Virus record (IMG/VR): IMGVR_UViG_2830161386_000001
Location: 133,772-197,771 of that record
Length of the DNA: 64,000 nt
Reading direction: 5' to 3' (one strand)
DNA from: a virus
Taxonomy: Duplodnaviria; Caudoviricetes
Below are positions 9,980 through 60,227 of this stretch, in pieces. The notes beneath the pieces were generated by a model. It was not told where the DNA came from and searched no databases. It was given only the letters and a program-made list of their open reading frames with translations. The position numbers and the translations under genes were made by a program. Numbering within the stretch: position 1 is the first letter of the stretch; every line of letters begins with the position of its first letter.

Positions 9980-10008
9980 TATGGTGGGAAGTCAGCCGGG
10001 ATTTTTGC
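9980..10008 (-). promoter_or_regulatory. Putative promoter GCAAA-N17-CACCATA
   Basis: One of 8 copies with an identical 17-nt spacer. Confidence 0.7.
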
Positions 10009-10032
10009 GCTTCAGCCCCAGCTGGGATTCTA

Positions 10033-10278
10033 TTAGTTCGAGCGGACGTACCCGCCGAAAAGACGGGACCGCCCGAAGTAGAAAAAGTGAAGCGCCCAGG
10101 AGCGAACGTCTGCCGGGCGTCCCCGGACCATTCCGGCCTCGAAATTGACCTCTTGGACCCGGTAGTTTCGGCCGTCCGGCAGGTAGATTTTATCCCCGGC
10201 CGAAAACGAGTGCTTCTCGATCCTGTCCTCCCCCACGAGAATCCCGGCGCGAAAGCCTTCCATAAATACGGCAATCAT
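10033..10278 (-). CDS. Small hypothetical protein
   Basis: Start overlaps the upstream stop (ATGA). Confidence 0.5.
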   Translation of the reverse strand: MIAVFMEGFRAGILVGEDRIEKHSFSAGDKIYLPDGRNYRVQEVNFEAGMVRGRPADVRSWALHFFYFGRSRLFGGYVRSN

Positions 10279-10844
10279 TGGTCTCGTTGATCTGGGTCGG
10301 TCGTGACAATGCCATCGGTCATGCGGTCTTCAAAGAGGGCCTCCAGGTCAATGCGCGCCCGGATGTAGACCTTTTGGCGCGGCACGTCCTCCTTGTCGTA
10401 CCAAAAGTCCTGAAGAATGGACTCTTGAACGGTCGCTTCCCCATCTTCGCTGCGCATGTACTGGGCGTTAACCCGCCCTTCCGGGTCGACGAGGGCCGGA
10501 ATCTTGATTTCAATGACCCCGTCTTCCGCCGGCCCGCGCCCGACCAGCCCCGAGCGGCGCAGGGCCTTCTTTAGGTCCGCCTCCCCGTCCTCGCTCTCCT
10601 CCAGCTCGGCCCCGCAGTACGGGCAGTAGTTTTTCTGCGGCTGGTGCAAGGAGCTGTGGGCGCAGTCGGGATCGGGGCACCGCATCTGTGTGGTGTCGAT
10701 GTGCCAACCGATCCGGCGGAGCTCCTCCGCGAGCGTTTCGGCCGCGCCCTTTACCGCGCCGCGCCCCGGCGGAACTGGCGTGCCAGGCGTGTCGGGTGGG
10801 CTTGTGGGCTTTTCTGGTTTCGTGCCTCCATCTTGACTACTCAT
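10275..10844 (-). CDS. Zinc-ribbon-containing protein
   Basis: CPDPDC...YCPYCG. Confidence 0.65.
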   Translation of the reverse strand: MSSQDGGTKPEKPTSPPDTPGTPVPPGRGAVKGAAETLAEELRRIGWHIDTTQMRCPDPDCAHSSLHQPQKNYCPYCGAELEESEDGEADLKKALRRSGLVGRGPAEDGVIEIKIPALVDPEGRVNAQYMRSEDGEATVQESILQDFWYDKEDVPRQKVYIRARIDLEALFEDRMTDGIVTTDPDQRDQ

Positions 10845-10901
10845 TGGTTTGGTATAGTTATTTCAGGTCTTGTGAGCTTGCCTTCTACCGGGCCGCTTGG
10901 C

Positions 10902-11183
10902 CTATTTGTCGTGGTTGAGGGTGTCGATCTCTTCTTGAAGACGGGTGGCCTGAGACCGAATGTGGTCAAGAACGGTAGGCAGTCCGCGAGTCTTCTCGCG
11001 AAGCACCCGCTCGGCCAGGCCCTGAGCGGCAGCGCTGGCGTCGGGATCTGTCAGAATGCGACGAACCGCAATTAGGGCCTGGAAGGTGCCCTCCAAGCGG
11101 TCACAAACGTCGTGAATGCGCTGGTGGGCGCCGACCTCGTCGACGGGGTCGGTATCGATGTCTCTGTCGCCAGGAAGGCTCAT
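10902..11183 (-). CDS. Hypothetical protein
   Basis: Codirectional ORF. Confidence 0.6.
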   Translation of the reverse strand: MSLPGDRDIDTDPVDEVGAHQRIHDVCDRLEGTFQALIAVRRILTDPDASAAAQGLAERVLREKTRGLPTVLDHIRSQATRLQEEIDTLNHDK

Positions 11184-11225
11184 AAGTACAGAATGGTTGG
11201 GAAAGAAGAAACGGTGGGCAAATGT

Positions 11226-11465
11226 CTAGGGAGCGTCCCCCGCATAGGTCGTGCACACCTCTTCGTATAGCTCCGCTTCACCCGCCCCACAGTCCTCGCA
11301 GTATTCGAGGCCCTTCTCGTTGGTCGTGATCGACGGATGGGTCAGGCGCGTGAGGTCTTTGATCAGCTGTTCGGCGTAGGTCTTTCCCGTGGCGTCTTCT
11401 TGGTTGCCTACGTCAACAATGCGCTTTGCCCGGGTGAAGGCATGGGTCAGGGTGGCGTCGTCCAT
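11226..11465 (-). CDS. Small protein with H..CxxC..C motif
   Basis: Start placed at MDDATL. Confidence 0.5.
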   Translation of the reverse strand: MDDATLTHAFTRAKRIVDVGNQEDATGKTYAEQLIKDLTRLTHPSITTNEKGLEYCEDCGAGEAELYEEVCTTYAGDAP

Positions 11466-11618
11466 ATCGCCAGTGCAGTAATGATAGAGATTGCGAATCC
11501 CAGCTGGGACTGGGGTAGCGTCATTTCGAATTCGTTCGACAGGTCTTAGAAATAAAAAAGATCTGCCCCAGTGTAAAACTGAGGCAGACCCGTTCTGCGC
11601 CCTACTCAATCCACGACC

Positions 11619-15623: not shown

Positions 15624-15652
15624 TATGGTGCAGATACAGCCGCTACTTTTGC
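15624..15652 (-). promoter_or_regulatory. Putative promoter GCAAA-N17-CACCATA
   Basis: Exact spacing; followed by a GACGAGGG leader. Confidence 0.7.
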
Positions 15653-37356: not shown

Positions 37357-37385
37357 TATGGTGGGGACTTTTCGCCAACATTTGC
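37357..37385 (-). promoter_or_regulatory. Putative promoter GCAAA-N17-CACCATA upstream of the paralog array
   Basis: Exact spacing; palindrome copy 5 bp upstream (37391..37406). Confidence 0.7.
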
Positions 37386-37429
37386 GCTTCAGTCCCAGCT
37401 GGGACTGGCGCCTATGCGTTGGGCCGCTT

Positions 37430-40400
37430 TTAAAACTCCCACCGGTCCGGGTCAAGTCCCTTGTCGAAGCCCTTGCCGTACATGTAGGCGCTTACCGGGC
37501 TCGTCCCCCGGATCTCCGCCTCGTGCCCTTCCTGGGCAGACGTGGTCAGCTCCCGCTTCAGGTTTTGGAAGTTCATCTTCGAGAGCCAATTTTCCCCGTG
37601 GAAGGGCACCTTCCCAACTGGCGTAAGCTGCCCCTCCGCAACGACCGGATCCTCATCGTCCCCGGCCTGCTGGTTAAACGCCTCGATTTTGCCGGACTGC
37701 ACGTTCTCGCCGGGCACAAAATCCGAATCCCCCGGGTCCCGAACGCGGGCGAAGTCCGTCATCGCGGCCAGCGTCGTCTCCGCGCCCCGGCGGTTGATGC
37801 CGCCGATCTCGTTAAAGATGGTGTGCAGCTCTCGCGTCAGGTAGTCGCGGGTTTCCTCCAGCCCCTTTGTTTTCTGCATCTCATCGGGGTCGAAGTGGCC
37901 CGCTTCGGTGATCTTCTCTCCCGCCTCCAGCTCCGCGCCCGGCTCGATTTTATCTCGGATGCGGCGCTCCGGCGGAATTCGGGTAGAGCGCGTCTCGCCC
38001 TTGTCTTTGGAGGTGTAGGTGACGTCGGTGCCGACCTTCCCGCCCTGCGCGAACACGTCTTCCGTTTCCTCAATCTCGAAGGATTCGCCGGGCTCCCCCT
38101 CCGCGATGTGGGCCTTGAAGTTCGGAGACTTTAGCTGCACGATCTCTTGAAAGCGGTCGAACGAAGGGGCGGTTTTGTCCGCCGAACCAGTTTCGTGCAT
38201 CGCCTTGAGCGTGAGCTTCGTGGAGGCCTCAATGATGCCCTGCCCCTCCCGGACGCCGACGTTTTCCCCGAGATCCGGCATGTTTCCGTTTTCCGTTCGA
38301 CCATAACAAGCCGCGCAGACCCCCTCCTCCGACTCGCAAGTCAGCGGGGAGCGCACCTTCACGGTCTCCTGCCCGGCCCGCTCCATCGCCGCGAGCTTCG
38401 AGCCGTCAATCTCCTCGCCGCTTTCGGCCAGGAACCGCCCGTTGAGGTCGTCGGTGTTGAGGCTCCCGCCCTCTTTGAGCGGAATCTCCTTCCCCGCCGT
38501 CGTGCCGCAGTCCCGCTCGGTCACGACCAGGTCTTGGCTTCCGGCGATAATCTGTTTCCCGAGGTAGCCCGGCTTTGAGGTCTCGACCGACCGGTCTCGA
38601 AGCCCCATAAGGGCCCCGTGTTGCTGGAGGTAGTACTCTCCGCCCTTGAGCCCCCGGTTCAAAGAGTTTTTGACCGGCCGGGGCACCCGGTTTTTGTGCA
38701 CGTCCTTCACCATGCCGAACGTGCCGAGCAGCTGCCGGATCTGGTTCGGGCTCGACCGGGAGCCGACCTGCATCATGCGGACCAGCGGGTTGTCCCCGTC
38801 TCGCTCTTTGATCTCTTTCTCCATTCGCTTCATCGTGCCCATGATGGTCTTGTCCTCCTCGCCCCCTTCGCCTTTCTCGACGGTCACGTCCGTCCCCATA
38901 TTCAGGTCGATTTCCGCCTGCTGGTAGTCTGCTTCATCCGGCTCTTCTTTGCCCTTCTCCTCGGCGATAATCTGGGCGCGGTCGCCGATGTACTGTTCGG
39001 ACTGTTCGTAGTGCTTCTCCGCGAGGCTGTCCTCCGGCTTTACGTCGTCGAACCCGACCGTAAAGCCCTTCTTCGTCGCGTGCTGGGAGCCGAGCATCGA
39101 GAGCTTGTGGGAGATGTCCGCGTACTTTTCGGGAAAGCGGCGCACGAGCCCCTCCAGAAAGACGTCCTCCATGCCCTCGTCATCGAGGTCCAGGCCCCGC
39201 ATGCTAATGTCCTTGTCCGGGTGGTCGCTTTGCAGCTCCTCCATGTATTTGTTCAGGCCCATCTGCCCCTCAGTGCCCTTCCGGATCGCGTCGTCGATCA
39301 GGGCCCATCCCGGCGTCCACTGCTCCGCGTCTCCGTCCTCGCCTTGAATCTTAAACGGCTGGTGGGGCTTCACGTCGCCGGTGTTGTACTTGCGGATCAG
39401 GTCGTTCTTGTCGGTTATGTCCGGCTCGTTTTTCGGCTCCGGGTCCCCGTCGGCTACAGGGCTGCTTCCGGCCACCTGCGACAGGTCGTGCAGCCCCAAG
39501 AGCTGGCTGTGGTCCGGGTGCACAAGCAGCTTTTTTGAGCCGGGAGCGCGGAGATTCCGGCTTGGCTTCATGCTGTGGGCCTCGTTTACTGCCGCGTCGG
39601 TCACCGGCACGTGGGCTGACATTGTATTGTGCACGATAATCCCCGGCCCCACGCAGAACACGTGATCGCCTTCTACGGTCATGTCTGCTACCACCGGCTC
39701 TTGCTCGACCTGCTCAACTGAGCGGACCGTATAGGCTTCCTGAGTGGGTGGCAGACCGAGCTTTTCTGCCACCTCACGACCAGACCCGAATACCGAATCG
39801 TGCACGTTGTCAAGCACGTCTTCACCCGCCTCAAGGTCTTGGGGCGCAACCTCCTCTCCGCCGACCATCATCGAGTGGTCGCTCGTCACGCGAACGGCAT
39901 AGCCGCCCCTAGTTTCAACCTCATAGGTTGGTTTGTCCGTCTGGTGGACCGTCAGCTCATTAACCGACACCCACTCCCCGTTGCTATTGAGCGTTTGAAC
40001 ACTTGACACGAACGGCAACCTGAGGTTTTCCGACGGAACCTCTCCAAATATCTGGGTGATTAACTCTTTAATTTGGCCTTCCCAAAGCCCATTGGCCATA
40101 CGAAGCACGACAGGCGTGTTGAGCGACACGGAATCCCCGTCAAAATCTCCGCCCTGAAACGGGGCGACGACCTGGTTGGGGACCCGGATTGCCTTCTCGG
40201 TGTCGTTGGACTCCGGATCCTCCGAAATCAGCTTCGGCTCGTGGGCCGTGACGTTGTGCTGCCACCACGACGGGTCCCGGTTTAGAAGCACCGGGCGGTC
40301 CTCCATTGCCTTCCGCAGCTCTTTGCGGGCCTTGTCGGTGCGGTCCTCGTACTCTTCCTTCGCGTCGACCGCGCTTCCAAGCTCTTTCGAGAGCTCGTTC

Positions 40401-43400
40401 CGGACAAACGGCTCGTAAATCGTCCACGCCATCTCCTCCGGCAGGCCGACCTCGTCGACCCCGAGGGCGTCGGTGCCCTCAATCTGTTTGAGCCCGGAGG
40501 GAATGATCGTCGACCGGCCAGAGAGGTCCTGTTTCTTTTTCATGACTTTCCGCTGGGCGTAGCCGCCCTTTGGGCCCTGCGATTCGTCGTCCTCGTCGGT
40601 AAAGTTTTGGTCCCCGGCCACGGCGCCGCCGCCGGCAATCTGGTCCATGATCGACTTGGCCTTGATGTTGCCCCGCGGGCTGGAGCCGTCCCCAAAGAGG
40701 GCCCCGAGGTCCTGCATCAGCCCTTTTCGGTCCTGCTTGATCTCTTCCTCCCCGAGGTAGTTTTCAACCGACTGATTTAGCTGCTCCTTCCCGTGAAGCA
40801 CCTCCCCGTAGAGCTTGTTCGTGGGCTGGCGGTGAATCTTCCCGTCCCCGCTGAGAAGCGGGCGGCGGTACTTGCCCGGCATCACCGGCACCTTGCTCAA
40901 CATAAAGGCGTCCTCCGGCGCCACGTCGTTTTCCTGGAGGTTGCCCAAAAACTTGAGCTTCGACTTGTACATATCCGCCCGCTCGGCCTTGAAGTCCCCC
41001 TGCATGTAGTCTTCGGCCTTTGACCGGACCTCCTCCATCGTTTTGTCCACGTCAATCGTGGAGAGAAGCTCCTTGAGGTCCTCCCCGCCGCTGTAGGTTT
41101 TGTCCCCGATCTCCACGGAGGCGTCTCCGATGTAGAGGTTCTTTACGTCCTTCTGCGTCATGTTCGACGTGGTGCGGGTCTTCCCGTTTGCCTTGTTGAT
41201 GCGGGGAGTCACGTCGTGGGACACCCGGAGCCCGTCTTCCAGGGCGTACTGAAGGCCCTTCTTGAATAGCGGGTTCGGGACCGGCTCCGGAAGCTCGATG
41301 TGGTTCCAGTTCTCCGCCCCCTCCCCGACGAGGTTCGGGTCGAAAAGCCCCTTCGTGACCGCTTTTTGCCGCCCGTACCCGCGGTCATGCTGCTTCGGGG
41401 TCTGGTAGCCGCCGGGGTTTTCGATCTCCCCCGCGCTTTTTCTCTGGATGTCCTTATCTGTCATCGGCGTGAGCTTAATCGCGTCCTTCTGGTCCTCCTC
41501 GACACTTACCCCGAGGCTTTCGATCATCGATTTAAACTTGTCAAACGAGAAGGGCGTGTCCGCCACCCGGGGCTTCCGGCCTCCCTTGACGAAGTCGTAC
41601 CAGTAGTCCTGATTTTCCGTCCCCTTGATCTGGGCCATCTCCGAGAGGTTTGCCCGGGCGTTGTGGCCGATCATGCTGTGGACGGTCAGGTTGTCCATGC
41701 TCGCCCCGCCGACGGGCTGTTCGTCCATGTCGTACCCCTCGTTGACCCCGCGGGCGTCGAACTTCTTGTTCAGCATGTGCTTCAGCTTCGCGACGTACTG
41801 CTTCCCGATGTTGACGTCGGGAATCGTCTCTCCGGTCTCCGGGTGCTCGAAGTCCTCCTGCACGTCGATGCCCAGCTCCTCAAGCTCCTGGTTTATGTCC
41901 TCCCAGTCGGTCCGGTTGTCGAAGTTTTTGACCTTGTAGGTTTCTCCCTTCTTGTCCGCGACTTTCCCGGCCGCGTTTTCGAAAATCTGCCCCACATTCG
42001 CCCGCGAGGGGACCCCGTGCGGATCGACGAGGAGGTCCGGCACCTTCCCGTCTCGCTTTCGCTTCGGCATTTTGTCCTCCGGAAGCACCTTGGAGGTAAT
42101 GCCCTTGCCCCCGGCGCGCACGGTAATCTTGTCTCCCTCTTTAAATTTCTCTTCCGTCTTCACGTACACCCGGACGCCGGCGGTATTGCCCTCCCCGTCT
42201 TTGTCCGTTTCCACGCGGGTGACGACGCCCTTGTCCGGCTTATTCCAGTAGACCGACCGGTCCCGGGCGTCGATCCCAAACTCCTTAAACGTCTGCTTGA
42301 GCTGGCGCGTCAGGTCCGGGTCGTTGCGCAGGTTTGCCTTTCCAATTGCGGTCACGAGGGCGTCTCCCTCCTCGACGGTCGCGCCCTCTTGAATAATGCC
42401 ATCGGCCCCGAGGGTGTCGCGGTTCAGGTCCCCGAGCTTCCCTCGGTCGCGCATGTGGGTGGAGTAGATGTCCAGGCCCTGCTCGTCGTTTGGCTCCGCC
42501 TCGTAGACTTTCTCGTAGACGTGCTCGGAGGTGAGCTTCTCGGCCCCCTTTTCCGACATGACCATACTGTCCTCGTAGTTGAAGCCGGACATCGGCATGT
42601 AGGCGACGTCGAGGTTTTTCCCGACCGCGAGCTTCCCCTCCTCGTCGGTGTAATTGTTGGTCGTCATGAGATCCCCTTCCTCCACCTGGTCTCCGGGGTC
42701 GACCTTGACAGAGTGGTCGATAAAGCCGCCTTGATTGAGCGGAAGGTCGTTAAAAAGCGGGTACTGCTTCTCCTCCCCCTCGTCGGTCTCGACGACAATG
42801 GCCTCCTCTTGCACTTCTTTCACCGTACCTGGCTCCTCGGCGGTCACGTTGTAGCGGTGGCCGAGTCGCTTTGAGAAGGTCTCTCCGGTTTCATCTACCG
42901 GGTCGACCAGAGGCGACTCCGCGTCTTTCAGGGAAACCCCCTGGGCCATCTGCCTCGCCCCCATAATCGCCCGCGGGCCGGAGTTGTGGTGCACAAACGG
43001 GACGATGTTGGTCCCGTCGGCCAGCATGTCGGTCATGTCCGGCAGGACGTACCGAACTTCCTCTTCGGGAACTTGCTTGACCTCGTTTCCGACGCCGGCG
43101 TAGACTTCCTCTTGCTTCGGCTCGTAGGTTTCTCCGCCCTCGGTTTCCTCCCGCTGGAAGTCGTCTGCAAACCCGATATTTCCCTCCGCGATCTCCTGGG
43201 CGGAGACGATCCGCTTCTCTCCCTGCTTCCGGTCGTAGACCTCACGCTGGACCTCCCCGTCCTCCCCGATGCGGGCGCCTTTTGCCAAAGGCATCGAGCG
43301 GCCCGGACTGCCGGTTGGGGTGTTGACCACGTCAATGAGGCCAAGCCGGGAGGGGTGCAGCTCGATGTTCTCTGGCTGGATCGCGTGCTCGGACTGGATG

Positions 43401-44596
43401 CCGCCGGGGCCCTTGATGGTAATTTCCTTGCCCCGGTTGTCGATGTCGAGGATGTTGTTGGTTTCGGTGGTGGTCGAGAGAGCTGAGTTTTTGTAGGTCG
43501 ACTGCACCTTGTTTCGGATCTTCCCCTTTACCGAGGAGAGAACCGAGGAGAGATCCGGCGTCTCCCCGCTTTGAAGCGCGTCGTCGATCCGGTTTTCCGC
43601 CTCGCTCATCTTCCCCTTTAGTTTCGAGTCCCGCTTTAGGTTCTCGCGGAGCTGGGTCGGAATCCCGTGGATGCGCCGGAACTCCTCGGAGAAGCGGTGG
43701 GTGGGGTTCTCCCGGCCGTTGAGCGTCTGGACGAGCTTCCGGGCGGACTGCTTGATCGTCTCGGCCGAATACTTCTCGGTTTCAACGTCTATGGTCTTGC
43801 GGTTTACGTCCGACTCAAACGCCTTCCCGTCCGTAAGGAAGTCCCGCAGCATCTCGGCCATCTCCTCAAAGGATGCCCCTTCCGGCAGCTCCTCCTGGAG
43901 CTTGTTCGGCGTGATGCCAGTGAAGATTTTCTTCGTCACGTTCTCCAGGTCCAGCGGTGCCGCGTCCCCGGCCGCCTGGCCGACGCTTAGGTCCTGGTGG
44001 TTGTATTTGTAGAAATCCCCCATGATGTCTTGGATCTCCGACTCCGGGACCTCAAACACCTTTAGCAAGGCGTAGACGCCCCGCTCGACCGTTTTTCGGC
44101 TCTGGCCGATCACCTGAACGTCAAGGGTCGGGGTGTCGTCGTTGTCCGCGTCGACTACGAAGTTAAACGACCCGCCCTGCTGGGAGTTGAACTCGACCAT
44201 CGCGTCTCCCTCCTTTCGGGTCGGGTAAATGCCCGGCTCCCGCCGCACCTGAAACTTGTTCTGGTAGTGCATCCCGTTGATCATCCGGGTGCCCAAGTTG
44301 TCGACAACGGGGTAGTACGGGCCAATTTTCGTGTCGTGCTCCTGGAGAACCTCCCCGTCCTTTTTGAGCTGAAACGTCCCCTTCATCGGGACCTCGTAGG
44401 ACTTGCCCTTCGCCCGGGCGTCGTTGATGTAGCCGGGGTTGTCTTCGAGGTCGTCTTTACTTTTGTCGATGTGCACGTCTTTGAGGTCGATCTGCACGTC
44501 TCCCTGGTCGGACTCCAGGGGCATCATGTCGCGCAGGGCCTTCTGGACCTCCGTCTCGATCTCCTGGTCCTCATTCCGCGTTAGAAGCGAGCTCAT
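37430..44596 (-). CDS. rpoBC: Single-chain fused RNA polymerase beta-beta' subunit with intein
   Basis: Beta motifs (HPSRLG, PFVHHN..RAIMG, GFNYEDS, GDKITVRAGGKG, PHGVPSRANVGQ, KLKHM) continue in frame into beta' motifs (HIELP, SGRSTI, LLNRDP, GDFDGD, GYL, CESEEGVCAACYG); start placed at MSSLL. Confidence 0.93.
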   Translation of the reverse strand: MSSLLTRNEDQEIETEVQKALRDMMPLESDQGDVQIDLKDVHIDKSKDDLEDNPGYINDARAKGKSYEVPMKGTFQLKKDGEVLQEHDTKIGPYYPVVDNLGTRMINGMHYQNKFQVRREPGIYPTRKEGDAMVEFNSQQGGSFNFVVDADNDDTPTLDVQVIGQSRKTVERGVYALLKVFEVPESEIQDIMGDFYKYNHQDLSVGQAAGDAAPLDLENVTKKIFTGITPNKLQEELPEGASFEEMAEMLRDFLTDGKAFESDVNRKTIDVETEKYSAETIKQSARKLVQTLNGRENPTHRFSEEFRRIHGIPTQLRENLKRDSKLKGKMSEAENRIDDALQSGETPDLSSVLSSVKGKIRNKVQSTYKNSALSTTTETNNILDIDNRGKEITIKGPGGIQSEHAIQPENIELHPSRLGLIDVVNTPTGSPGRSMPLAKGARIGEDGEVQREVYDRKQGEKRIVSAQEIAEGNIGFADDFQREETEGGETYEPKQEEVYAGVGNEVKQVPEEEVRYVLPDMTDMLADGTNIVPFVHHNSGPRAIMGARQMAQGVSLKDAESPLVDPVDETGETFSKRLGHRYNVTAEEPGTVKEVQEEAIVVETDEGEEKQYPLFNDLPLNQGGFIDHSVKVDPGDQVEEGDLMTTNNYTDEEGKLAVGKNLDVAYMPMSGFNYEDSMVMSEKGAEKLTSEHVYEKVYEAEPNDEQGLDIYSTHMRDRGKLGDLNRDTLGADGIIQEGATVEEGDALVTAIGKANLRNDPDLTRQLKQTFKEFGIDARDRSVYWNKPDKGVVTRVETDKDGEGNTAGVRVYVKTEEKFKEGDKITVRAGGKGITSKVLPEDKMPKRKRDGKVPDLLVDPHGVPSRANVGQIFENAAGKVADKKGETYKVKNFDNRTDWEDINQELEELGIDVQEDFEHPETGETIPDVNIGKQYVAKLKHMLNKKFDARGVNEGYDMDEQPVGGASMDNLTVHSMIGHNARANLSEMAQIKGTENQDYWYDFVKGGRKPRVADTPFSFDKFKSMIESLGVSVEEDQKDAIKLTPMTDKDIQRKSAGEIENPGGYQTPKQHDRGYGRQKAVTKGLFDPNLVGEGAENWNHIELPEPVPNPLFKKGLQYALEDGLRVSHDVTPRINKANGKTRTTSNMTQKDVKNLYIGDASVEIGDKTYSGGEDLKELLSTIDVDKTMEEVRSKAEDYMQGDFKAERADMYKSKLKFLGNLQENDVAPEDAFMLSKVPVMPGKYRRPLLSGDGKIHRQPTNKLYGEVLHGKEQLNQSVENYLGEEEIKQDRKGLMQDLGALFGDGSSPRGNIKAKSIMDQIAGGGAVAGDQNFTDEDDESQGPKGGYAQRKVMKKKQDLSGRSTIIPSGLKQIEGTDALGVDEVGLPEEMAWTIYEPFVRNELSKELGSAVDAKEEYEDRTDKARKELRKAMEDRPVLLNRDPSWWQHNVTAHEPKLISEDPESNDTEKAIRVPNQVVAPFQGGDFDGDSVSLNTPVVLRMANGLWEGQIKELITQIFGEVPSENLRLPFVSSVQTLNSNGEWVSVNELTVHQTDKPTYEVETRGGYAVRVTSDHSMMVGGEEVAPQDLEAGEDVLDNVHDSVFGSGREVAEKLGLPPTQEAYTVRSVEQVEQEPVVADMTVEGDHVFCVGPGIIVHNTMSAHVPVTDAAVNEAHSMKPSRNLRAPGSKKLLVHPDHSQLLGLHDLSQVAGSSPVADGDPEPKNEPDITDKNDLIRKYNTGDVKPHQPFKIQGEDGDAEQWTPGWALIDDAIRKGTEGQMGLNKYMEELQSDHPDKDISMRGLDLDDEGMEDVFLEGLVRRFPEKYADISHKLSMLGSQHATKKGFTVGFDDVKPEDSLAEKHYEQSEQYIGDRAQIIAEEKGKEEPDEADYQQAEIDLNMGTDVTVEKGEGGEEDKTIMGTMKRMEKEIKERDGDNPLVRMMQVGSRSSPNQIRQLLGTFGMVKDVHKNRVPRPVKNSLNRGLKGGEYYLQQHGALMGLRDRSVETSKPGYLGKQIIAGSQDLVVTERDCGTTAGKEIPLKEGGSLNTDDLNGRFLAESGEEIDGSKLAAMERAGQETVKVRSPLTCESEEGVCAACYGRTENGNMPDLGENVGVREGQGIIEASTKLTLKAMHETGSADKTAPSFDRFQEIVQLKSPNFKAHIAEGEPGESFEIEETEDVFAQGGKVGTDVTYTSKDKGETRSTRIPPERRIRDKIEPGAELEAGEKITEAGHFDPDEMQKTKGLEETRDYLTRELHTIFNEIGGINRRGAETTLAAMTDFARVRDPGDSDFVPGENVQSGKIEAFNQQAGDDEDPVVAEGQLTPVGKVPFHGENWLSKMNFQNLKRELTTSAQEGHEAEIRGTSPVSAYMYGKGFDKGLDPDRWEF
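39626..40132 (-). mobile_element. Mini-intein (169 aa) in the RNAP active-site loop
   Basis: DFDGD|SVSLNTPV...VTSDHS...DMTVEGDHVF..GIIVHN|TMSAHVP; block B TxxH and terminal HN followed by Thr; no room for an endonuclease. Confidence 0.92.
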
Positions 44597-45083
44597 GTTC
44601 GGAAATGTCGAAGTAATTAGCAGGCGGTCGGTGGGCGACGCGCCGACTGTCGTCAATCTGTATCGATAGCTCGGGGGTCTTCTCTTTCTTTTGCACGTAG
44701 GAGAGGGCGCTGGGGCGAATCCGGTTGACCCGCGTGTACCAGTAGTCGTAGGTGTTGCGGTGGGAGTCCCGGCCCGACGCGATGGACACAAGCGGCACGC
44801 CGCCCTCCGCCATCAGGTCCACGATCGGGTCGCTTTCCCCCTCCATCGCCGTGGTCACGAGGCGGGCCGCTGCGTTGAGGCGGTAGGAAGAGCGCCGCTT
44901 CAGCATGTACTCTTTGATTTTCTGGCCGCCCGGGTTGTCGTCCAGGTACCGGTACACCCGCATTGTCAGGCGGTCCGCCTCCTTGTCGGACTTGGTGTAC
45001 CGCTTGATCACGTCGCGAAGCGCGGAGCGCTCCTCCAAAGACTCCTCGACAACACTGGCCGGATCGGGAAGCTCGCTACTCAT
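44571..45083 (-). CDS. Hypothetical protein overlapping the RNAP start
   Basis: Overlaps both neighbours. Confidence 0.65.
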   Translation of the reverse strand: MSSELPDPASVVEESLEERSALRDVIKRYTKSDKEADRLTMRVYRYLDDNPGGQKIKEYMLKRRSSYRLNAAARLVTTAMEGESDPIVDLMAEGGVPLVSIASGRDSHRNTYDYWYTRVNRIRPSALSYVQKKEKTPELSIQIDDSRRVAHRPPANYFDISEHELASNAE

Positions 45084-45345
45084 TGCTCTCGCTTTGCTGC
45101 TGCTGGATTTGCTGCCTCGCCTCCTCGTACTCGGCGGTGCTGTCGGCCCCAGGCTCCTGCGGGACCTGCGGGTTTAGCTCCCCCCGAAACTCAATTGTCG
45201 GGTTGTTGACGGCCGTTTGGCCTCCGTCTCCGTCCGGCACGTACACCCGGACGTCGCTCCAGTCCGCGATGTCTCCGTACAACAGCTGCATCGCTTCAAG
45301 AAGCTCCGTCTTTGTCGGTCGGTGCGTCGTCGTCGGCTTGCTCAT
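45076..45345 (-). CDS. Small hypothetical protein
   Basis: Overlapping operon arrangement. Confidence 0.6.
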   Translation of the reverse strand: MSKPTTTHRPTKTELLEAMQLLYGDIADWSDVRVYVPDGDGGQTAVNNPTIEFRGELNPQVPQEPGADSTAEYEEARQQIQQQQSESNE

Positions 45346-45829
45346 TGCAAGTTTGGCACTGGCTCGAAGAAATAAACTGCTCGATTTCGCTTTGCCCCCG
45401 CTTTTCTGGGGCGATCACAACGTCGGTTTGCTCGTGTCCGGCGTCGCACACCCGGATTCGCCTCACGAAGTGCGGAGCCCGGTAATCGCTGGTAAAAAGC
45501 GACCGGACGTGGCTTTTTTCTGTGCTGGTTGCCCAGCGGACGTACACCCCGTTCCGCCGGAGCCGGGCGTACCGCTTGAGTTTCGGCCCCAGGCCCGACG
45601 GCCGGCTCAGGCCGAGCCCGTCGTACTCCACGAGCATCAGCGCCTGGTCTTCAACGCTTTGCGGGCCGAGCTGGACCCCAAAATCAGACTCGGCCCCGGC
45701 GACCACCGGGTGGCCGACGACCCCGCGAAGATACTCCTCGCGAACCAGCGCAAAAAGCACGCGGGCCACTTCTTGCTCGGACTTCGAGTCAAAGGCCCCC
45801 AAGACGCCTGATTTTGGGGCGCCGAACAT
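45296..45829 (-). CDS. PD-(D/E)XK nuclease-like protein
   Basis: DSKSEQEVA...SDF...LVEYDG pattern (Vsr/DUF559-like). Confidence 0.5.
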   Translation of the reverse strand: MFGAPKSGVLGAFDSKSEQEVARVLFALVREEYLRGVVGHPVVAGAESDFGVQLGPQSVEDQALMLVEYDGLGLSRPSGLGPKLKRYARLRRNGVYVRWATSTEKSHVRSLFTSDYRAPHFVRRIRVCDAGHEQTDVVIAPEKRGQSEIEQFISSSQCQTCNEQADDDAPTDKDGAS

Positions 45830-46449
45830 CAGAACACCTCTACTGGTGAGGCCGCCGGGCTGGGGGAATCCTCCGGGCCGCTGGCCTGCGGGTCAAGACG
45901 GGTCATCCACTGGGAAAGCGACTGTGCAAGGTCTCGTTCGCTCAGGTCCGAAAGCTCGTCGCCGACCATCCACGTGTCAAAGCCACGCGCCATCGCCTCG
46001 ACGAGCCCGGTGCTCATTTCTTCGTTCTGGTCTACACCAAAATATAACAGCCCCCCGTATATCTGGTGATGCAGAAGCGACCGCGGGATTGCCTCCGCGA
46101 CGATGCCCATGCGCCGGGTCCGGTCAATGCCAGGGAGGCAGAACGCAACTGTGGGCTGGCCGCTGATAAGATCCCCTTGCAGGTCCGTCGCCGTGGAGGC
46201 GTACTCCACTACGTTGGCAAAAAGGCGGCGGTCGTGCTCCGGCTCGTCCGGGGAGAAGGGAAAGCACATCGGCTGGCAGACCTGCTCGACGACCCCGTAA
46301 ATTGCCTGCCACCGCTCCGGCGGCCCGAGCACCCCGAGCAAAATAACGCGAACCGGCGGGTCCTCCTCTACGCCCTCTTTTTCGCTGTTTTGATCAGGGC
46401 TTTCATTTTGACTGGGCTTCCCATTTTGCCCATCCCTTTTGCTATTCAT
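45829..46449 (-). CDS. Hypothetical protein
   Basis: Overlapping operon arrangement. Confidence 0.65.
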   Translation of the reverse strand: MNSKRDGQNGKPSQNESPDQNSEKEGVEEDPPVRVILLGVLGPPERWQAIYGVVEQVCQPMCFPFSPDEPEHDRRLFANVVEYASTATDLQGDLISGQPTVAFCLPGIDRTRRMGIVAEAIPRSLLHHQIYGGLLYFGVDQNEEMSTGLVEAMARGFDTWMVGDELSDLSERDLAQSLSQWMTRLDPQASGPEDSPSPAASPVEVF

Positions 46450-46888
46450 CGTTTACGACTTGATCGGCCAATTCGTTGGGGCGGCGTTTCAGCTTTTCGT
46501 AAATGCGGGTTCCCGAACCGATGTGCGAGGACCGGTACCGAATAACCGCCCGCACCTCCGGCTCCGACAGCACGTCCTGCCGCAAAAGCCGGGCGCACTG
46601 CTCGACAAACTTGCGGGAACAGCCCCGGACGCCTCCTTCGGTAAGGCCCGCTTCTTGAGCCAGCTCGTAAGTGAGGCGGATCCGGTAAAGCGTGCGGTCG
46701 CTTTTTTTGAGCACGCGCCCGGAGACCTCAACGGCCTGGCGGGCCTCGGCAGGGGAAAGGTCTTGCTCCGACATCGCCTTTCCGGCGCGCCACCACCAGT
46801 CAACTTTGTCGTGGAACGCCTCGGCAATTTCGTCGCCAACGCGCTTTGATTTAAGTACCTCGCCTGGGCTCATCGCGCTTTCGGTCAC
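46442..46888 (-). CDS. Hypothetical helical protein
   Basis: Overlapping operon arrangement. Confidence 0.6.
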   Translation of the reverse strand: MTESAMSPGEVLKSKRVGDEIAEAFHDKVDWWWRAGKAMSEQDLSPAEARQAVEVSGRVLKKSDRTLYRIRLTYELAQEAGLTEGGVRGCSRKFVEQCARLLRQDVLSEPEVRAVIRYRSSHIGSGTRIYEKLKRRPNELADQVVNDE

Positions 46889-47373
46889 GACCGGGAAAAC
46901 AGGTTTGGCTGGATGCGGGCGATGTAGAGATCGAAGTTTTCAAAAGAGGGAGAGCGGTACGTGTACCGCGGGCTCCAACTTACGTGCCGGCCGACCGACT
47001 CGATAATGCCAGAAAGCCGGCTTGTGGCCCGGCCCGGATGAACGGCCATGTCCCGCATCCGGATCATAAACTCGTTGCCCGACCGGTACCCCGCCGCCCA
47101 AAGCGGCGCCTGCTCGCTCAAGGACAGGTCCGTTTTCGTGTGGTGGAGGATCAGCTCCTCTTCCGGCTCGATCTGGGCGCCGACCTCGTTTTTATCTGGC
47201 GGGCCTCCCTCAATCCAGCTCGCGCAGACGTAAACCTCCTGCCCAACTGGGTACTTCAACACCTCTTCGACAAACGACCGGATGGCCGCTTCAAACTCGT
47301 CGGATGCCGGGTTCACCATCGGAAGGGAAGATTGGGCGCATCTGCTACATGTCCAACCTACTCCGAAAGCCAC
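46885..47373 (-). CDS. Hypothetical protein
   Basis: Overlapping operon arrangement. Confidence 0.55.
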   Translation of the reverse strand: MAFGVGWTCSRCAQSSLPMVNPASDEFEAAIRSFVEEVLKYPVGQEVYVCASWIEGGPPDKNEVGAQIEPEEELILHHTKTDLSLSEQAPLWAAGYRSGNEFMIRMRDMAVHPGRATSRLSGIIESVGRHVSWSPRYTYRSPSFENFDLYIARIQPNLFSRS

Positions 47374-52695: not shown

Positions 52696-52708
52696 GGGAG
52701 GGAGCTCC

Positions 52709-54305: not shown

Positions 54306-54334
54306 TATGGTGCTGCTCTCGTCCTCATTCTTGC
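54306..54334 (-). promoter_or_regulatory. Putative promoter GCAAG-N17-CACCATA upstream of the tmRNA cluster
   Basis: One mismatch to the consensus, same spacing. Confidence 0.6.
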
Positions 54335-56093: not shown

Positions 56094-56176
56094 AGAATTG
56101 ACCAGAATACAATGCCTCTGGGCAGGGCGATTGTGCGAAAGAGTGAGAACGACGAGCCATGTCCCTCGTCTATTTA

Positions 56177-56205
56177 TATGGTGCCCACATGCCCGCAATT
56201 TTTGC
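56177..56205 (-). promoter_or_regulatory. Putative promoter GCAAA-N17-CACCATA
   Basis: Exact spacing; directly after a terminator (about 56228-56255). Confidence 0.75.
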
Positions 56206-56264
56206 ACAAATCTCGACTCAAAAAGCCAAAAAAAGACCCCCGCTTTTCGGGGGCCCACAGAATG

Positions 56265-56630
56265 TCATGAAAGCTCTTCGGCCAAGTCGGCCAGGACTCG
56301 CATGTCGTCTTCAGTTACCTCTCTGCTGACCCGCACTCGCGGAGCGATCCCCCGCGCTTTTTCCATTCGTTGGTCGGCCGAGAGAGATGTAAAGGTCGAC
56401 TCTTCGTATTTCTTTTCGAGCCGATCAAACTCGTCGAGAAAGTGTTCGGCCCTTCCCTTCTGGGCCTCCTTTTCTTCCTCGATGTTATCGTTAAGCCTTT
56501 TCACCTCGTCGAGGAGTTGCTCCAGGATACTGCCCTGGGAGTTATTGCTCGAAGCCGTATCAGCGGCCTCAGCGGCTTGGGCCATCTGGCCCAGTGCGTT
56601 CAAGATTTCTTTCTTATCAGAGTTAGCCAT
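56265..56630 (-). CDS. Coiled-coil acidic protein
   Basis: Codirectional ORF followed by a terminator. Confidence 0.65.
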   Translation of the reverse strand: MANSDKKEILNALGQMAQAAEAADTASSNNSQGSILEQLLDEVKRLNDNIEEEKEAQKGRAEHFLDEFDRLEKKYEESTFTSLSADQRMEKARGIAPRVRVSREVTEDDMRVLADLAEELS

Positions 56631-56778
56631 GTCACTGTTTTCTTATCTATATGATTGAGTGAGAAAGGCAGCATTTGGCGTGACCCGCCACGCGCCGCGA
56701 GGAGGCAGCTGCTATGCGTGGCATATGTCACCGCCCTTTCTGTTGACAGGGAAGGCGGAGTAAAACCCCGGCGTGTGG

Positions 56779-57267
56779 TTACGCCAAGTCGGCCCGCTGG
56801 AGCCGGTCCAGCGCCTGGACGGTGTTTTTGCCGATGAACGGGACCTGAAGCAGATCCCACTTATCGGCGCCCAGAACGTCTCCGTAAGTCTGGAGATTTC
56901 GGGACATGAGCGACCGCGCCTGCTTTTTGGTGAGGCAGGGCAGGTCCCACACTGGCGTTCCGTCCAGATCCACAGGAACATCGGACGCCAGCACGTCCAG
57001 CGCGTCTGTCGGGAACCGCCCGTCTTGGTCGCGGGCCCACTTCTTAAAGCGGGTTGCGACCTTCTTGCGGGTCCGGGCTGGAATCCCGGCGTCCCGCAGG
57101 CGCTGGTGCAGCTGCCGGGTGGTATCCCAGAGCTGCTTGTTGACCGGCCGATTGTCCGGGCACGTGCAGTCGTCGCCCCGTACGTGTCCAGCGGCTTTCG
57201 AAAGTGCCATCGCTGGCTTCATACGTTGGAGTCCCGGATTCGCGCCTCCGTGGCGGGCATAATTCAA
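56779..57267 (-). CDS. Protein with C-terminal RNAP alpha-CTD-like (HhH) domain
   Basis: PVWDLPCLTKKQARSL...LQTYGDV...KWDLLQVPFIGKNTV resembles alpha-CTD L..RS.NCL...I..IGDL....ELLK.PNLGKKS. Confidence 0.6.
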   Translation of the reverse strand: MNYARHGGANPGLQRMKPAMALSKAAGHVRGDDCTCPDNRPVNKQLWDTTRQLHQRLRDAGIPARTRKKVATRFKKWARDQDGRFPTDALDVLASDVPVDLDGTPVWDLPCLTKKQARSLMSRNLQTYGDVLGADKWDLLQVPFIGKNTVQALDRLQRADLA

Positions 57268-57372
57268 AGAGTGAGAGCGGCTGGTCAGCTAACGTTCGCC
57301 AGCCACGCTCTAGGCTTAACTGCTCAAGGCGAGTGCTACTCGCTTTAGCCTGGCCTAGACCAGGTTGACGGC

Positions 57373-57693
57373 CTACCGGCTGAAGCCCTTGGCTCCAATC
57401 GGATTGCCGTCGTCGTTCCGGATAAGTTCTCCGGGTGATACCACATCGCTGCGGTCGACTTCGCTGCACACGAAGCCCGACACGACGTAAAGCGTGTCGT
57501 CCTCTTTCGGCTCCGGAAGACCCACGACCTCATCAGTCGTGGTCTCGTAAATTGGCACGCCTGCCACCTCGTCTACTTTCTTCCGGGTAGTCTCCACGCG
57601 GGCCGTTTGTCCGCTCGGCTCAATTTCGAGGGTTTCTCGGCCTTGTTCGTCGAAAATGTTGAGGGTGTGCGGAGTTAGGTTGATAATGTCCAT
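57373..57693 (-). CDS. Conserved phage protein (INLTPH family)
   Basis: IINLTPH...PSG..ARV...GLPEP....YVVS...R.DV.SP. Confidence 0.7.
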   Translation of the reverse strand: MDIINLTPHTLNIFDEQGRETLEIEPSGQTARVETTRKKVDEVAGVPIYETTTDEVVGLPEPKEDDTLYVVSGFVCSEVDRSDVVSPGELIRNDDGNPIGAKGFSR

Positions 57694-57751
57694 AACGCGG
57701 TAAGCAGTTTCGAGTGAGAGAACGAGACGAGCCATTCCCCTCGTCTATTGA

Positions 57752-57780
57752 TATGGTGCGCATACGCACTACATATTTGC
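57752..57780 (-). promoter_or_regulatory. Putative promoter GCAAA-N17-CACCATA
   Basis: Exact spacing; follows a terminator (about 57822-57852). Confidence 0.75.
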
Positions 57781-57860
57781 ATAGAATCGGCCTTTAGCGG
57801 CGCTGAACGGGGATTTTAGATAAAAAAAGACCCCCACATATTTGCGGGGGTCTCGGAGAG

Positions 57861-58283
57861 TTACCACTGCAAATCAGTGATATTGAAGCCCTCCTCCTTG
57901 AGGGCTTGCCCCAAAGTAGAATCTTGGTCGAGCGTGCCGTCAGGGTGTATTACCCAGGCGGTCACGCTTTTAGGATTTGATGCCCCTTCGTGCACCTCCC
58001 ACCCGAACTGGAGCCCATTTCGGGTACTGTACTGAATTCCATGCGCTTGCACGTTGATCGAAGCCTCCCCCCAACCGACGCCGTTAGCCGTTGTGCGGTC
58101 TCGGGCGACGTTCGCTGCCAGGCTGCCGGCCACCCGCTTCTCCACGGCGTGAGACGGCCGTTCCAGAAGATGTTCTAAGGCAGGGCCATTATTTTCAATG
58201 GCCTGCTTGATGGAGAAAGAGGCGGATGCCAGTGAGGCAACGGCTTTCTTCACTGAGTTAAATGTCCGTTCTGCGGTATCCAT
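57861..58283 (-). CDS. Hypothetical protein
   Basis: Flanked by terminator-like hairpins. Confidence 0.6.
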   Translation of the reverse strand: MDTAERTFNSVKKAVASLASASFSIKQAIENNGPALEHLLERPSHAVEKRVAGSLAANVARDRTTANGVGWGEASINVQAHGIQYSTRNGLQFGWEVHEGASNPKSVTAWVIHPDGTLDQDSTLGQALKEEGFNITDLQW

Positions 58284-58381
58284 GGATATTTGCCGGTCTA
58301 TCGGTTCCGGCGCCGTAGGTTAGGTTGTTATGTTAAACGCAAAGACCCCCGCCTCAAATCGAGACGGGGGCCGTTTTCGGC

Positions 58382-59125
58382 CTACAGGTTCGACGCAATC
58401 TTGTCCCTTTCCGCCTCTGCGGCGGAAAGAGCGCGTTCGGTCAGGGTGGACTTGCCTCCTGGGTAGGCGTAAATCGCCGCCCGGGCGGCATCTTCGATCT
58501 GTGTCCGAGCAACTTCTTTGCCCCGCCTAACGGCATAATTTCCGGTAGGGGCGCTTACCTCGCGCTGCACCCACCGCAGCGCGTCCCGTACAACTTCGTG
58601 ACGCAACGGTCCATGATCTCTCTCAGGAACGTCATATTTCCGTCGGATGTTACGGCGCGATTTTGCCGCGTCTTGAAGATATTCCGGAGCAAAGATCCCA
58701 CCGCTTGAGTCGAGGCCGATAGAGTTCGTCGACGCCCTGGCAAATGCAGTGGCAAAGAGGTTCTTTCGCACCTCCCCCTCGGTCTCGTTACTCGACGGAT
58801 CGAGTCGAATAAACCAGCCGTTCTTCTTTAGCTGATTTAATCCCCACTTCATCGTGACCGGAGACATGGCCTCATGAGGAGTGCCAATACTCAGCACGCC
58901 ACTTTTGGGGCTGTAACTTACCCCCGTATATCCTTTGCCTCCAATCGAGCACCTTGAGCCGTTCCGCTCCTCTACCCTCTTCATGCCATACGTTCCGTTG
59001 TCTTTCTCATGCACCCGGAAGATAAGATCATCTGTTCCGAGGACCCAAGACTGTCGCCTTCTTGGGTCATTCGGGTAGCAAGACCGAATAGTCGTTGTTC
59101 GTACTAGAAAATTTGTGCCAGCCAT
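58382..59125 (-). CDS. Basic hypothetical protein
   Basis: Lower GC; start placed at MAGTNF. Confidence 0.55.
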   Translation of the reverse strand: MAGTNFLVRTTTIRSCYPNDPRRRQSWVLGTDDLIFRVHEKDNGTYGMKRVEERNGSRCSIGGKGYTGVSYSPKSGVLSIGTPHEAMSPVTMKWGLNQLKKNGWFIRLDPSSNETEGEVRKNLFATAFARASTNSIGLDSSGGIFAPEYLQDAAKSRRNIRRKYDVPERDHGPLRHEVVRDALRWVQREVSAPTGNYAVRRGKEVARTQIEDAARAAIYAYPGGKSTLTERALSAAEAERDKIASNL

Positions 59126-59357
59126 AGCAAACGTGCCCTCTCGGGCGGTGAATGAGTGCAGTGGAGCCACGTCTGCGGTCGGTTGGCTCCGGTCATCTGC
59201 CAGGTGGCCAGTTCGGCCGTGTCGTTCGGCAGCGCCCACTCACCAGCTTGCTGCCCAGCGTGAGCAGTGGGACCCTTGTGACAGTCCCGGCAGCAGCACA
59301 GGGCTGCTGGGCGGTTTAAGCGCGGCAGTGATGCCGGGATGCCAGCCCGGGTGTAAG

Positions 59358-59630
59358 TTACCACCGCGTCTCCGCGGTGGGGTCCTTGCGGTTCGCTACT
59401 GATCTCAACACCTGCCGGATTCGCGTCCAAGAAGCTCCGGCCACCCGCATGTTGTTGATCATCACCTTGATGTTCATGCAAATATCGGAGGGGGTGCCTC
59501 CGTATGTGTCTTGCTGAAGGATGGTCATGGCCGCCAGGGCTTCCCCCAACAAATACTCTTTGGAATAGTCCATCTGGAACTCGGCGAAGGTTTTCTTGAA
59601 CCGTTCGATTTCCTCTTTTTCGGCAGCCAT
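59358..59630 (-). CDS. Hypothetical protein
   Basis: Start placed at MAAEKE. Confidence 0.55.
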   Translation of the reverse strand: MAAEKEEIERFKKTFAEFQMDYSKEYLLGEALAAMTILQQDTYGGTPSDICMNIKVMINNMRVAGASWTRIRQVLRSVANRKDPTAETRW

Positions 59631-59813
59631 TGTTCTGTGGATCTTAGGATGGGCCGAGCAGCCCCACGAGTGAGATTTTCGCTCGATAGTCACCACCCTG
59701 CGACTCGAACGCAGCGCTTCGGTTGTAAACGCCGAAGTCGCCGAGCGGCCCGTGAATTCACAGGCCGGTGGTGAGCCTTTGCCCAGCTGGAAGAATCCCA
59801 GCTGGGACAGAGA

Positions 59814-60113
59814 TTAGAGATAGTCTCCGATTATGGAGAGCGCCTCCGCCCCGCATCCGGCGGAGACCAAGCCCGCGGCGAAGAACGCCGCGGCCTCAAT
59901 ATGTGCCTGGGTTCGGGCACGGCTCTTAATCTTTTCCTGCCCTGCTCCAGGGTGGAGAACGTCGGGATCCCACCCGACCTCTCGCTCGGGGTCCTCTAAG
60001 GACGCGGCGTACAGGTCCTTCGCCTTCACCGCCCGCCCAGCGGCAAAGACACCAGTTAAGATTGAGACCCCGGACAGAACGACTATGTCAATCGCGTTCT
60101 CTGCATGGTTCAT
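59814..60113 (-). CDS. Small membrane protein
   Basis: Start placed at MNHAEN after the conserved leader; two hydrophobic segments. Confidence 0.55.
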   Translation of the reverse strand: MNHAENAIDIVVLSGVSILTGVFAAGRAVKAKDLYAASLEDPEREVGWDPDVLHPGAGQEKIKSRARTQAHIEAAAFFAAGLVSAGCGAEALSIIGDYL

Positions 60114-60198
60114 GGTGACATGCGGAATACAATGCCTCCGCGTGAAGGCGTTTTTGGAGTGAGAGTGAGAACGACGAGCCATTCCCCTCGTCTATAAA

Positions 60199-60227
60199 TA
60201 TGGTGCCGATGTAAGGGCTATATTTGC
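60199..60227 (-). promoter_or_regulatory. Putative promoter GCAAA-N17-CACCATA
   Basis: Exact spacing; follows a terminator (about 60268-60298). Confidence 0.75.

Follow-up and report, generated by a model that had tools for sequence, protein, structure and literature searches.

A bipartite promoter-like motif with a fixed 17-nt spacer heads gene blocks in a large salt-lake phage that encodes a fused beta-beta' RNA polymerase

T7-group promoters form a single continuous stretch of ~23 bp, recognized by a phage single-subunit RNA polymerase (RNAP), and the SPO1 classes of gp28 and gp33/34 and the late promoters of T4 depend on phage sigma factors. The promoters of the non-virion RNAPs of phiKZ and AR9, enzymes with split subunits, are short, consist of a single block and lie close to the start, and the N4-type virion-RNAP promoter is a small hairpin in the DNA ahead of the start, with a loop of 3 nt. 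Phages with a single-chain, fused multisubunit-type RNAP are, to our knowledge, represented in metagenomes only. Metagenomic tailed phages with a multisubunit RNAP beta and beta' have been described as RNAP-encoding Caudovirales, or mReC (Weinheimer and Aylward 2020, PMC7481178), in a paper whose main text, supplements aside, uses neither the word "promoter" nor the word "sigma". The literature that we searched, again without supplements, yielded nothing on the promoters of fused-RNAP phages, on how such enzymes find their genes, or on the motif described here, GCAAR-N17-CACCATA, which recurs in a tailed phage carrying a fused beta-beta' RNAP (IMG/VR record IMGVR_UViG_2830161386_000001). The stretch analysed, hereafter the window, comprises 64,000 nucleotides (nt), bases 133,772–197,771, i.e., the final 64 kb of this 197,771-bp virus record; positions are those of the window unless given as genome positions. 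By IMG/VR class the record has direct terminal repeats, it is complete by CheckV, and 95 bp are common to both of its ends.

An earlier note on this DNA had reported eight minus-strand copies of the motif in the window, each with a spacer of exactly 17 nt, and all eight were recovered at the positions below, against 0 matches in 100 dinucleotide-preserving shuffles.

60199..60227, minus strand: promoter-like site GCAAAtatagcccttacatcggCACCATA; 45.3 bits; predicted start ~60194
57752..57780, minus strand: promoter-like site; 40.5 bits; predicted start ~57747
56177..56205, minus strand: promoter-like site with the top score, 50.1 bits; predicted start ~56172
54306..54334, minus strand: promoter-like site with the lowest score, 34.0 bits, and without a strong leader hairpin
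37357..37385, minus strand: promoter-like site directly after the RNAP stop codon; syntenic with the site at 15852 of the related contig L103
17212..17240, minus strand: promoter-like site heading a small membrane-protein open reading frame (ORF)
15624..15652, minus strand: promoter-like site; the final codons and stop of the upstream ORF 15643-16005 overlap its -35 block
9980..10008, minus strand: promoter-like site directly after a palindrome copy

The note had also proposed a scan of the whole element, which returned 14 exact copies in 197,771 bp, all on the reverse strand; the forward strand of the record and a backwards-read control both gave 0. This is the coding strand for ~170 of the 173 genes that our own crude gene caller placed on the whole genome. 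CACCATA by itself occurs 15 times on the minus strand of the record and never on the plus strand, and in 14 of the 15 copies GCAAR lies exactly 17 nt upstream. The single copy outside the promoter-like sites (1 minus, 0 plus, against 2–4 expected from Markov models) is too weak a deficit for a claim of avoidance. A 15th site, also on the coding strand, carries the variant CACCACA, and the spacer is exactly 17 nt in all 15. When the 15 sites were aligned, the -35-like block read (G/C)(T/C)GCAAAWAT(A)G, one A and one T were conserved within the spacer (each in 12 of 15 sites), and the -10-like block consisted of two G/C bases and then CACCATA, followed by three free bases and a conserved purine start context, AT(A/G)G. 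Conserved blocks with differing spacers mean that the copies did not arise by simple duplication.

A weight matrix built from the 15 sites and from two sites of the related contig L103 gave the 15 sites scores of 34.0–50.1 bits, and nothing else on either strand of the 198 kb reached 8 bits; the best plus-strand score was 2.7 bits. Because the matrix was trained on the same sites, the informative point is the empty middle, without intermediate scores: the site class is all-or-none. Reading the motif as its reverse complement, in which ATWTTTGC approaches the Bacteroidota -7 box, was rejected because transcription would then oppose all of the genes.

That each site stands at the head of a gene block, as had been claimed, held for all 15: an ATG-started ORF of at least 40 aa begins 13–85 nt past the predicted start. 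At 60199 and 57752 the ATG at +13 falls within the leader hairpin described below, and the true starts are probably later ATGs; the PHROGs match of the 57752 ORF begins at residue 15. The distance from site to downstream ORF is 31–85 nt. The further observation that several copies directly follow a terminator applied to three of the eight window sites (60199, 57752 and 56177), which lie 50–75 nt after a strong hairpin with a T-run, and two more (9980 and 37357) directly follow a 16-bp palindrome.

60275..60299, minus strand: intrinsic terminator-like hairpin and T-run just upstream of site 60199
57827-57854, minus strand: terminator-like hairpin upstream of site 57752
56234-56256, minus strand: terminator-like hairpin upstream of site 56177
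37391..37406, no strand assigned: 16-bp palindrome AGTCCCAGCTGGGACT abutting the -35 block of site 37357
10014-10029: second palindrome copy, abutting site 9980

By our gene call, the site at genome 108012 falls within an ORF. All kinds of genes stand behind the sites, namely small membrane proteins, a transfer-messenger RNA (tmRNA), the replication block after the RNAP gene, a ribonucleotide reductase block, a cell-wall hydrolase, the terminase region and a block of PKD-domain and other large proteins. Site 54306 heads a small ORF, the tmRNA gene and a tRNA-like gene, and site 37357 stands before the block extending to DNA polymerase III alpha. The RNAP operon of the phage, in turn, lies in a 17-kb stretch free of the motif, behind two terminators and a plus-strand gene. 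Ahead of it, at 48716-48688, is a sigma-70-like TTGAAA-N17-TATGTT, a sequence of a quality found at chance level.

The motif was then sought in relatives of the phage. Its RNAP is one of a large set of fused beta-beta' proteins of ~2,000–3,000 aa on metagenomic contigs; a search among these gave 95 matches, the nearest 58% identical over the part searched. IMG/VR, with the single RNAP protein as query, held no close relative and 34 distant RNAP loci (26–33% identity), in which the motif was not found; the one match, in L037, was on the opposite strand and at chance level. The pattern of promoter plus hairpin had 0 matches in IMG/VR, and a strict scan of IMG/VR for the motif gave 24 single matches on 24 stretches, mostly AT-rich and in part near-identical copies of each other, roughly as expected by chance. 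The informative relative is the metagenome contig L103, with an RNAP 55% identical over its full length and a GC content of 46%, against ~60% in the phage. As in the phage, six small genes precede the RNAP in L103, and DNA polymerase III alpha follows at some distance. In the 25.8 kb examined there are only two sizeable coding-strand gaps, and the motif is present in both: GCAATtattcagctgattatcggACCATAagtATGG at 1849, and GCAAAtatagccctttatggtgaACCATAaatATGC at 15852, directly after the RNAP stop codon and thus syntenic with window site 37357. The first 15 bases of the latter are those of window site 60199. The conserved core is thus GCAAW-N18-ACCATA-N3-ATG, kept across a large shift in base composition. 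The RNAP gene of L103 itself lies within a gap-free operon headed by the motif.

We then compared the sites with the described bacterial promoter classes, by eye against consensus sequences and, for sigma-70 and Bacteroidota, also by pattern counts. The statement that the motif matches neither the sigma-70 nor the Bacteroidota consensus stood: both fail to fit and neither is enriched. TGCAAA and CACCAT each share three of six letters with the sigma-70 hexamers by eye, and the geometry is that of sigma-70, with a 17-nt spacer and equivalents of A(-11) and T(-7) in CACCAT (all 15 sites have the A at its second position, and 14 have the T at its sixth, the exception being the CACCAC variant). Sigma-70-like sites under a 9-of-12 rule numbered 6 in window positions 44001-64000, against 4.2 +/- 2.0 expected, i.e., chance level. 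The Bacteroidota -33/-7 arrangement, TAnnTTTG near the start and TTG or TTTG ~19 nt before it, occurs in none of the 15 sites, and TTG-N18-21-TAnnTTTG was met genome-wide once on the coding strand and four times on the other, i.e., if anything less often on the coding strand. Thus, counting sigma-70-like and Bacteroidota-type patterns, no other promoter class was found on the coding strand.

The faint likeness of the -10 to that of sigma-32 was partly borne out. The sigma-32 consensus is CTTGAAA, 13–15 nt, CCCCATnT, and what is shared with this consensus is C-CCAT, a C-rich -10 ending in CAT (CACCAT here, CCCCAT there). The -35 block (TGCAAA here, TTGAAA in sigma-32 promoters) and the spacer length, ~3 nt longer here, do not fit, and the T two bases after CAT, conserved in sigma-32 promoters, is not conserved at the phage sites. 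Promoters of extracytoplasmic function (ECF) sigma factors have AAC in the -35 and CGT in the -10, neither of which is present in the conserved blocks, and sigma-54 promoters have GG at -24 and GC at -12, 10 nt apart; no such dinucleotides are conserved at the sites, whose blocks are 17 nt apart.

Searches for the motif in possible hosts were also negative. The best weight-matrix score on the 35.5-kb Salinibacter ruber plasmid pSR35 was 2.4 bits, and 401 Bacteroidota genomes held 0–8 exact matches each, none enriched, in an exact-match test of little power. Shine-Dalgarno sequences are absent from 14 of 14 confident starts of the phage and from before at least 23 of 25 genes of pSR35, so that, given also the habitat, a Salinibacter-like host is plausible. 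The leaders of the phage are poor in G and often have TCTCACTC-like runs, and those of pSR35 look alike. The relatives of the phage RecA (~50% identical) are taxonomically scattered, and the RepA-like matches (~25% identical) are on plasmids of Planctomycetota, Rubrobacter and Deinococcus; neither is informative about the host.

Folding of the 36 nt that follow each predicted start gave, at 11 of the 15 sites, a stem-loop that starts at +2 to +6 and has an energy of -8.5 to -14.5 kcal/mol. Those of the window are as follows.

56151..56170, minus strand: leader stem-loop GACGAG/CTCGTC, from +3
60161-60192, minus strand: equivalent leader stem-loop
57711-57743, minus strand: equivalent leader stem-loop
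37320-37351, minus strand: equivalent leader stem-loop
15594-15614, minus strand: equivalent leader stem-loop
9953-9974, minus strand: equivalent leader stem-loop
17186-17207, minus strand: weaker leader stem-loop

The stems vary in sequence (GACGAG/CTCGTC, GGACG/CGTCC, AGAAGG/CCTTCT, AGCCGGG/CCCGGCT and others), and the z-scores of the folds are modest, -0.9 to -2.9 individually, with a mean over the 15 sites of ~-1.25. RNAalifold found no consensus in an ungapped alignment of the 15 leaders, because the loop lengths differ, and the hairpin claim therefore rests on single-sequence folds. Neither L103 site has a leader hairpin; the stem-loop is thus a frequent accessory in this phage and not the core signal, and it probably protects or marks the 5' end of the RNA.

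Two further features of the leaders were seen. Three units (17212, 56177 and 60199) have a second hairpin, ..GGAGGCATTGTAYTCC.., at ~17136-17157, 56102-56121 and 60122-60141 on the minus strand, 10–12 nt before the ATG of paralogous small membrane-protein ORFs, which carries the sole Shine-Dalgarno-like GGAGG seen among these leaders. At the site at genome 2586, ahead of a rIIA-like gene, T6 directly follows the leader hairpin (genome 2546-2581), giving it the appearance of a terminator or attenuator immediately behind the start.

The RNAP of the phage and the small genes ahead of it are as follows.

37430..44791, minus strand: fused beta-beta' multisubunit-type RNA polymerase with an intein
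44571..45083, minus strand: 170-aa member of an unnamed protein family, its gene immediately preceding that of the RNAP
45079..47373, minus strand: five more small genes, whose order ahead of the RNAP is conserved in L103

The enzyme comprises Rpb2 domain 6 followed by Rpb1 domains 2, 4 and 5; its longest ORF is 2453 aa, and the 2388-aa database call would start at ~44596. It retains the beta' clamp-helix region (E 1.5e-11 to bacterial beta' 104-396), which in bacteria is the sigma-binding part. This fusion was the sole RNAP among 133 predicted proteins scanned against Pfam; none belonged to the single-subunit RNAP family, for which no six-frame search was made. Sigma70_r2 proteins occur in three of five large contigs of distant fused-RNAP phages, and PHROGs searches of 107 proteins of this phage found no transcription factor.

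Of the six small genes just upstream of the RNAP (44571-47373), all conserved in L103, the one for the 170-aa protein drew our attention. Its family has ~20 proteins, a member also stands directly upstream of the fused RNAP in the distant contig L050 (E 3.2e-07), and an iterative hidden Markov model search added only the L103 and L050 homologues. It has no Pfam match and no sequence match in the PDB, and its hhalign probability against sigma is below 1%. A structural model from a 23-sequence alignment reached a predicted local distance difference test (pLDDT) score of 79, compared with 43 for an earlier model. Foldseek gave no match for this model at E <= 0.001, and in a wider structural search residues 1–51 were helix-turn-helix- or winged-helix-like, the best match (Z 5.2) being a winged helix. 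The protein is a candidate specificity factor, a lead and not a finding.

The sites form a strand-specific, all-or-none class that stands before ORFs and behind terminators and recurs in a relative. Because of their strand, position, fixed 17-nt geometry and conservation, together with the misfit to the sigma-70 and Bacteroidota consensus, they are very probably promoters, and the class is best read as new, phage-specific and bipartite. The earlier note had assigned them to the encoded RNAP or to an alternative sigma factor; the promoter part of this is well supported and a phage RNAP is present, whereas no sigma gene is detectable. As reader of the sites we favor a phage-directed holoenzyme over a host sigma factor, and rate its chances as about even. 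In such a scheme, both blocks, at their fixed spacing, would be read by a sigma-like specificity factor of two domains that is bound to a multisubunit-type RNAP; the holoenzyme would consist of the fused beta-beta' RNAP, perhaps joined by a product of the six small genes ahead of it; the transcript would start ~6–7 nt past CACCATA, at the purine of AT(A/G)G; and in most units the RNA would begin with a stem-loop protecting or marking its 5' end. A phage-directed enzyme is suggested by the high, all-or-none information content of the sites and their retention across the GC difference, by an own RNAP with a clamp-helix region, by the Sigma70_r2 proteins of the distant fused-RNAP contigs and, by analogy with phages whose RNAP gene is read by the host, by the location of the RNAP operon in a motif-free stretch.

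Several observations weigh against this reading. The operons behind the motif cover all kinds of function (nucleotide metabolism, replication, cell-wall hydrolase, terminase, tail-fibre-like), so that it does not mark a clean temporal class. No sigma factor was found in the phage by a six-frame Pfam search for regions r2 and r4, phmmer, hmmsearch or hhalign, the best hhalign probability among 108 proteins being 10.4%. The 170-aa model matches sigma domain 4 with a Z of only 3.5–4.0, which is within noise, and the sigma-family leads for this protein in a protein atlas are weak, below the atlas's own bar. The position of the L103 RNAP behind the motif favors an enzyme present before the phage RNAP is made, from the host or carried in the virion; positive feedback is another possibility. 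Finally, the runs listed for the sequence are all of DNA, with no RNA run, so the transcript starts remain predicted.

Alternatively, the host RNAP would read the motif with a host sigma factor, either the housekeeping one of an uncharacterised halophile lineage or an alternative one, and the phage RNAP would use other, unrecognised signals. This is possible, and clearly less probable than a phage-directed enzyme. The sigma-70-family geometry, with a 17-nt spacer and an A and a T that correspond to -11 and -7, the missing phage sigma, the motif-headed, gap-free RNAP operon of L103, the service of every functional class and the lack of another coding-strand promoter class all agree with it, as does the absence of Shine-Dalgarno sequences from both phages and from the Salinibacter plasmid genes, by which the hosts of the two phages could be related and share a sigma factor. 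Host promoters, however, usually show graded matches and not an all-or-none class with >34 bits per site, and a host sigma would have to account for a motif retained between phages of 60% and 46% GC, for the low best score on the S. ruber plasmid, for the lack of enrichment in the sampled Bacteroidota genomes, and for the misfit of the sigma-70, sigma-32, ECF, sigma-54 and Bacteroidota consensus sequences alike. It is doubtful that the fused RNAP acts as a minimal holoenzyme and reads one universal class of ~35 bits, for all phage genes, with a specificity subunit unrelated to sigma-70, drawn from the helix-turn-helix family found upstream of the RNAP in three lineages; if it did, transcription would be largely independent of host sigma factors, in a host without Shine-Dalgarno leaders. 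Unlikely, too, is a phage RNAP carried in the virion and injected, which would read a single universal class for all genes and need no host promoter. The one promoter-like class in 198 kb, serving all modules, the lack of a host-type consensus on the coding strand and the L103 operon speak for such an enzyme, while its gene stands among replication and not structural genes, and the RNAP operon of this phage has no motif and has, at 48716-48688, the sigma-70-like sequence mentioned above, albeit of chance-level quality.

That the motif is no promoter at all, and instead a regulator binding site or the boundary of a recombination cassette, we consider very unlikely. Contigs of two of four runs (X2 and X6) join 56201 to 60224, promoter to promoter, skipping 4,022 bases, and two copies abut the palindrome, a possible operator. 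The motif is nevertheless asymmetric and strictly co-oriented with the genes, its copies keep a fixed, short spacing to the ORFs that follow and to the terminators that precede them, and the purine start context is conserved; in the 56201/60224 join two promoter copies have recombined, as is to be expected where promoters are repeated. Contigs of three runs (X2, X3 and X6) also join 59918 back to 56088, between paralogous leaders or genes. From these natural joins, the promoter-headed units behave as exchangeable cassettes, and the early-looking region is mosaic between strains. None of the 40 listed of 619 variant places fell in the motif blocks, from which we claim no conservation statistic.

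The phage is a large phage of salt lakes. Contigs at least 99% alike were found in DNA runs of four studies, with the labels hypersaline lake (X2, X3 and X8) and brine (X6), and megablast against known phage records gave no match. Pfam and PHROGs scans identified a DnaB-like helicase, primase, DNA polymerase III alpha, RecA, thymidylate synthase, dUTPase, an intein-containing ribonucleotide reductase, a gpA-type large terminase and baseplate and tail proteins. Inteins are thus present both in the fused RNAP (37430-44791, minus strand) and in the ribonucleotide reductase (genome 123559-127284), which also has a LAGLIDADG domain. At genome 78156-89603 are an ORF of 3,815 aa, whose sole match is a carbohydrate-binding module below cut-off, and several ORFs of 1,000–2,150 aa with no or weak matches. 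TAATAAC-like words recur in an AT-rich stretch (genome 28750-29032) that stands out from the 60% GC of the rest; it could be a packaging site or a second origin. Just downstream of site 54306, a tmRNA gene (53453-53938, minus strand) was recognized over the full length of the Rfam model (70.4 bits, E 2.2e-25) and was not called by ARAGORN; after it come a tRNA-like gene (53269-53341) with the odd anticodon ACT and a terminator.

The palindrome abutting sites 37357 and 9980 is a perfect palindrome of 16–22 bp, (CTC)AGTCCCAGCTGGGACT(GAG), found across the whole genome; CCAGCTGG occurs 40 times, of which ~33 are full palindrome copies. Examples in the window are 37391-37406, 10014-10029, 48652-48667, 26663-26678, 21356-21371, 7023-7038 and 2261-2276. 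The copies are mostly intergenic, typically just past a stop codon and 20–60 nt before the next start, in all modules including the structural one, and at several places a second half-copy with a T-run follows. They could be RNA hairpins (for processing, for a 3' end or as terminators for the phage RNAP) or operators. Upstream of the RNAP is also a plasmid-like module (47831-50751), in which a RepA-like gene (PF10134) lies on the plus strand, the iteron ACGACAGTACA occurs four times in a divergent region at ~48650-48890, and a ParA-like gene (47831-48622) heads the operon that ends with the RNAP. This module could represent an origin or point to a phage-plasmid lifestyle.

The 15 sites, conserved in a relative, offer a concrete promoter for the reconstitution of a fused RNAP with a testable start signal, and the six neighboring proteins a short list of candidate specificity factors. 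They also supply operon boundaries for annotating the 198-kb genome. Should the reader not be a relative of sigma-70, a cellular-type RNAP would here recognize its promoters in a new way.

Among the systems introduced at the outset, this phage resembles the mReC by description, as a metagenomic tailed phage with beta and beta'. It differs from the N4 type in that its hairpins lie downstream of the predicted start, have loops of ~7–10 nt and are missing at 4 of the 15 phage sites and at both L103 sites. With phiKZ and AR9 it shares a phage-encoded multisubunit-type RNAP and an A/T-purine start context, AT(A/G)G here, whereas its motif is bipartite with at least 34 bits and its enzyme a single fused beta-beta' chain. 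The non-canonical -35 and -10 blocks at sigma-70-like spacing, which would redirect a multisubunit RNAP to phage genes, recall SPO1 and the T4 late promoters, with the differences that no sigma-family gene is detectable here and that the polymerase core may be phage-encoded. Two blocks at a fixed 17-nt spacing and a fused multisubunit-type RNAP set the phage apart from the T7 group, which it resembles in having few, near-identical, co-oriented promoters of high information, in encoding its own RNAP, and in that its RNAP operon does not stand behind a site of its own class.

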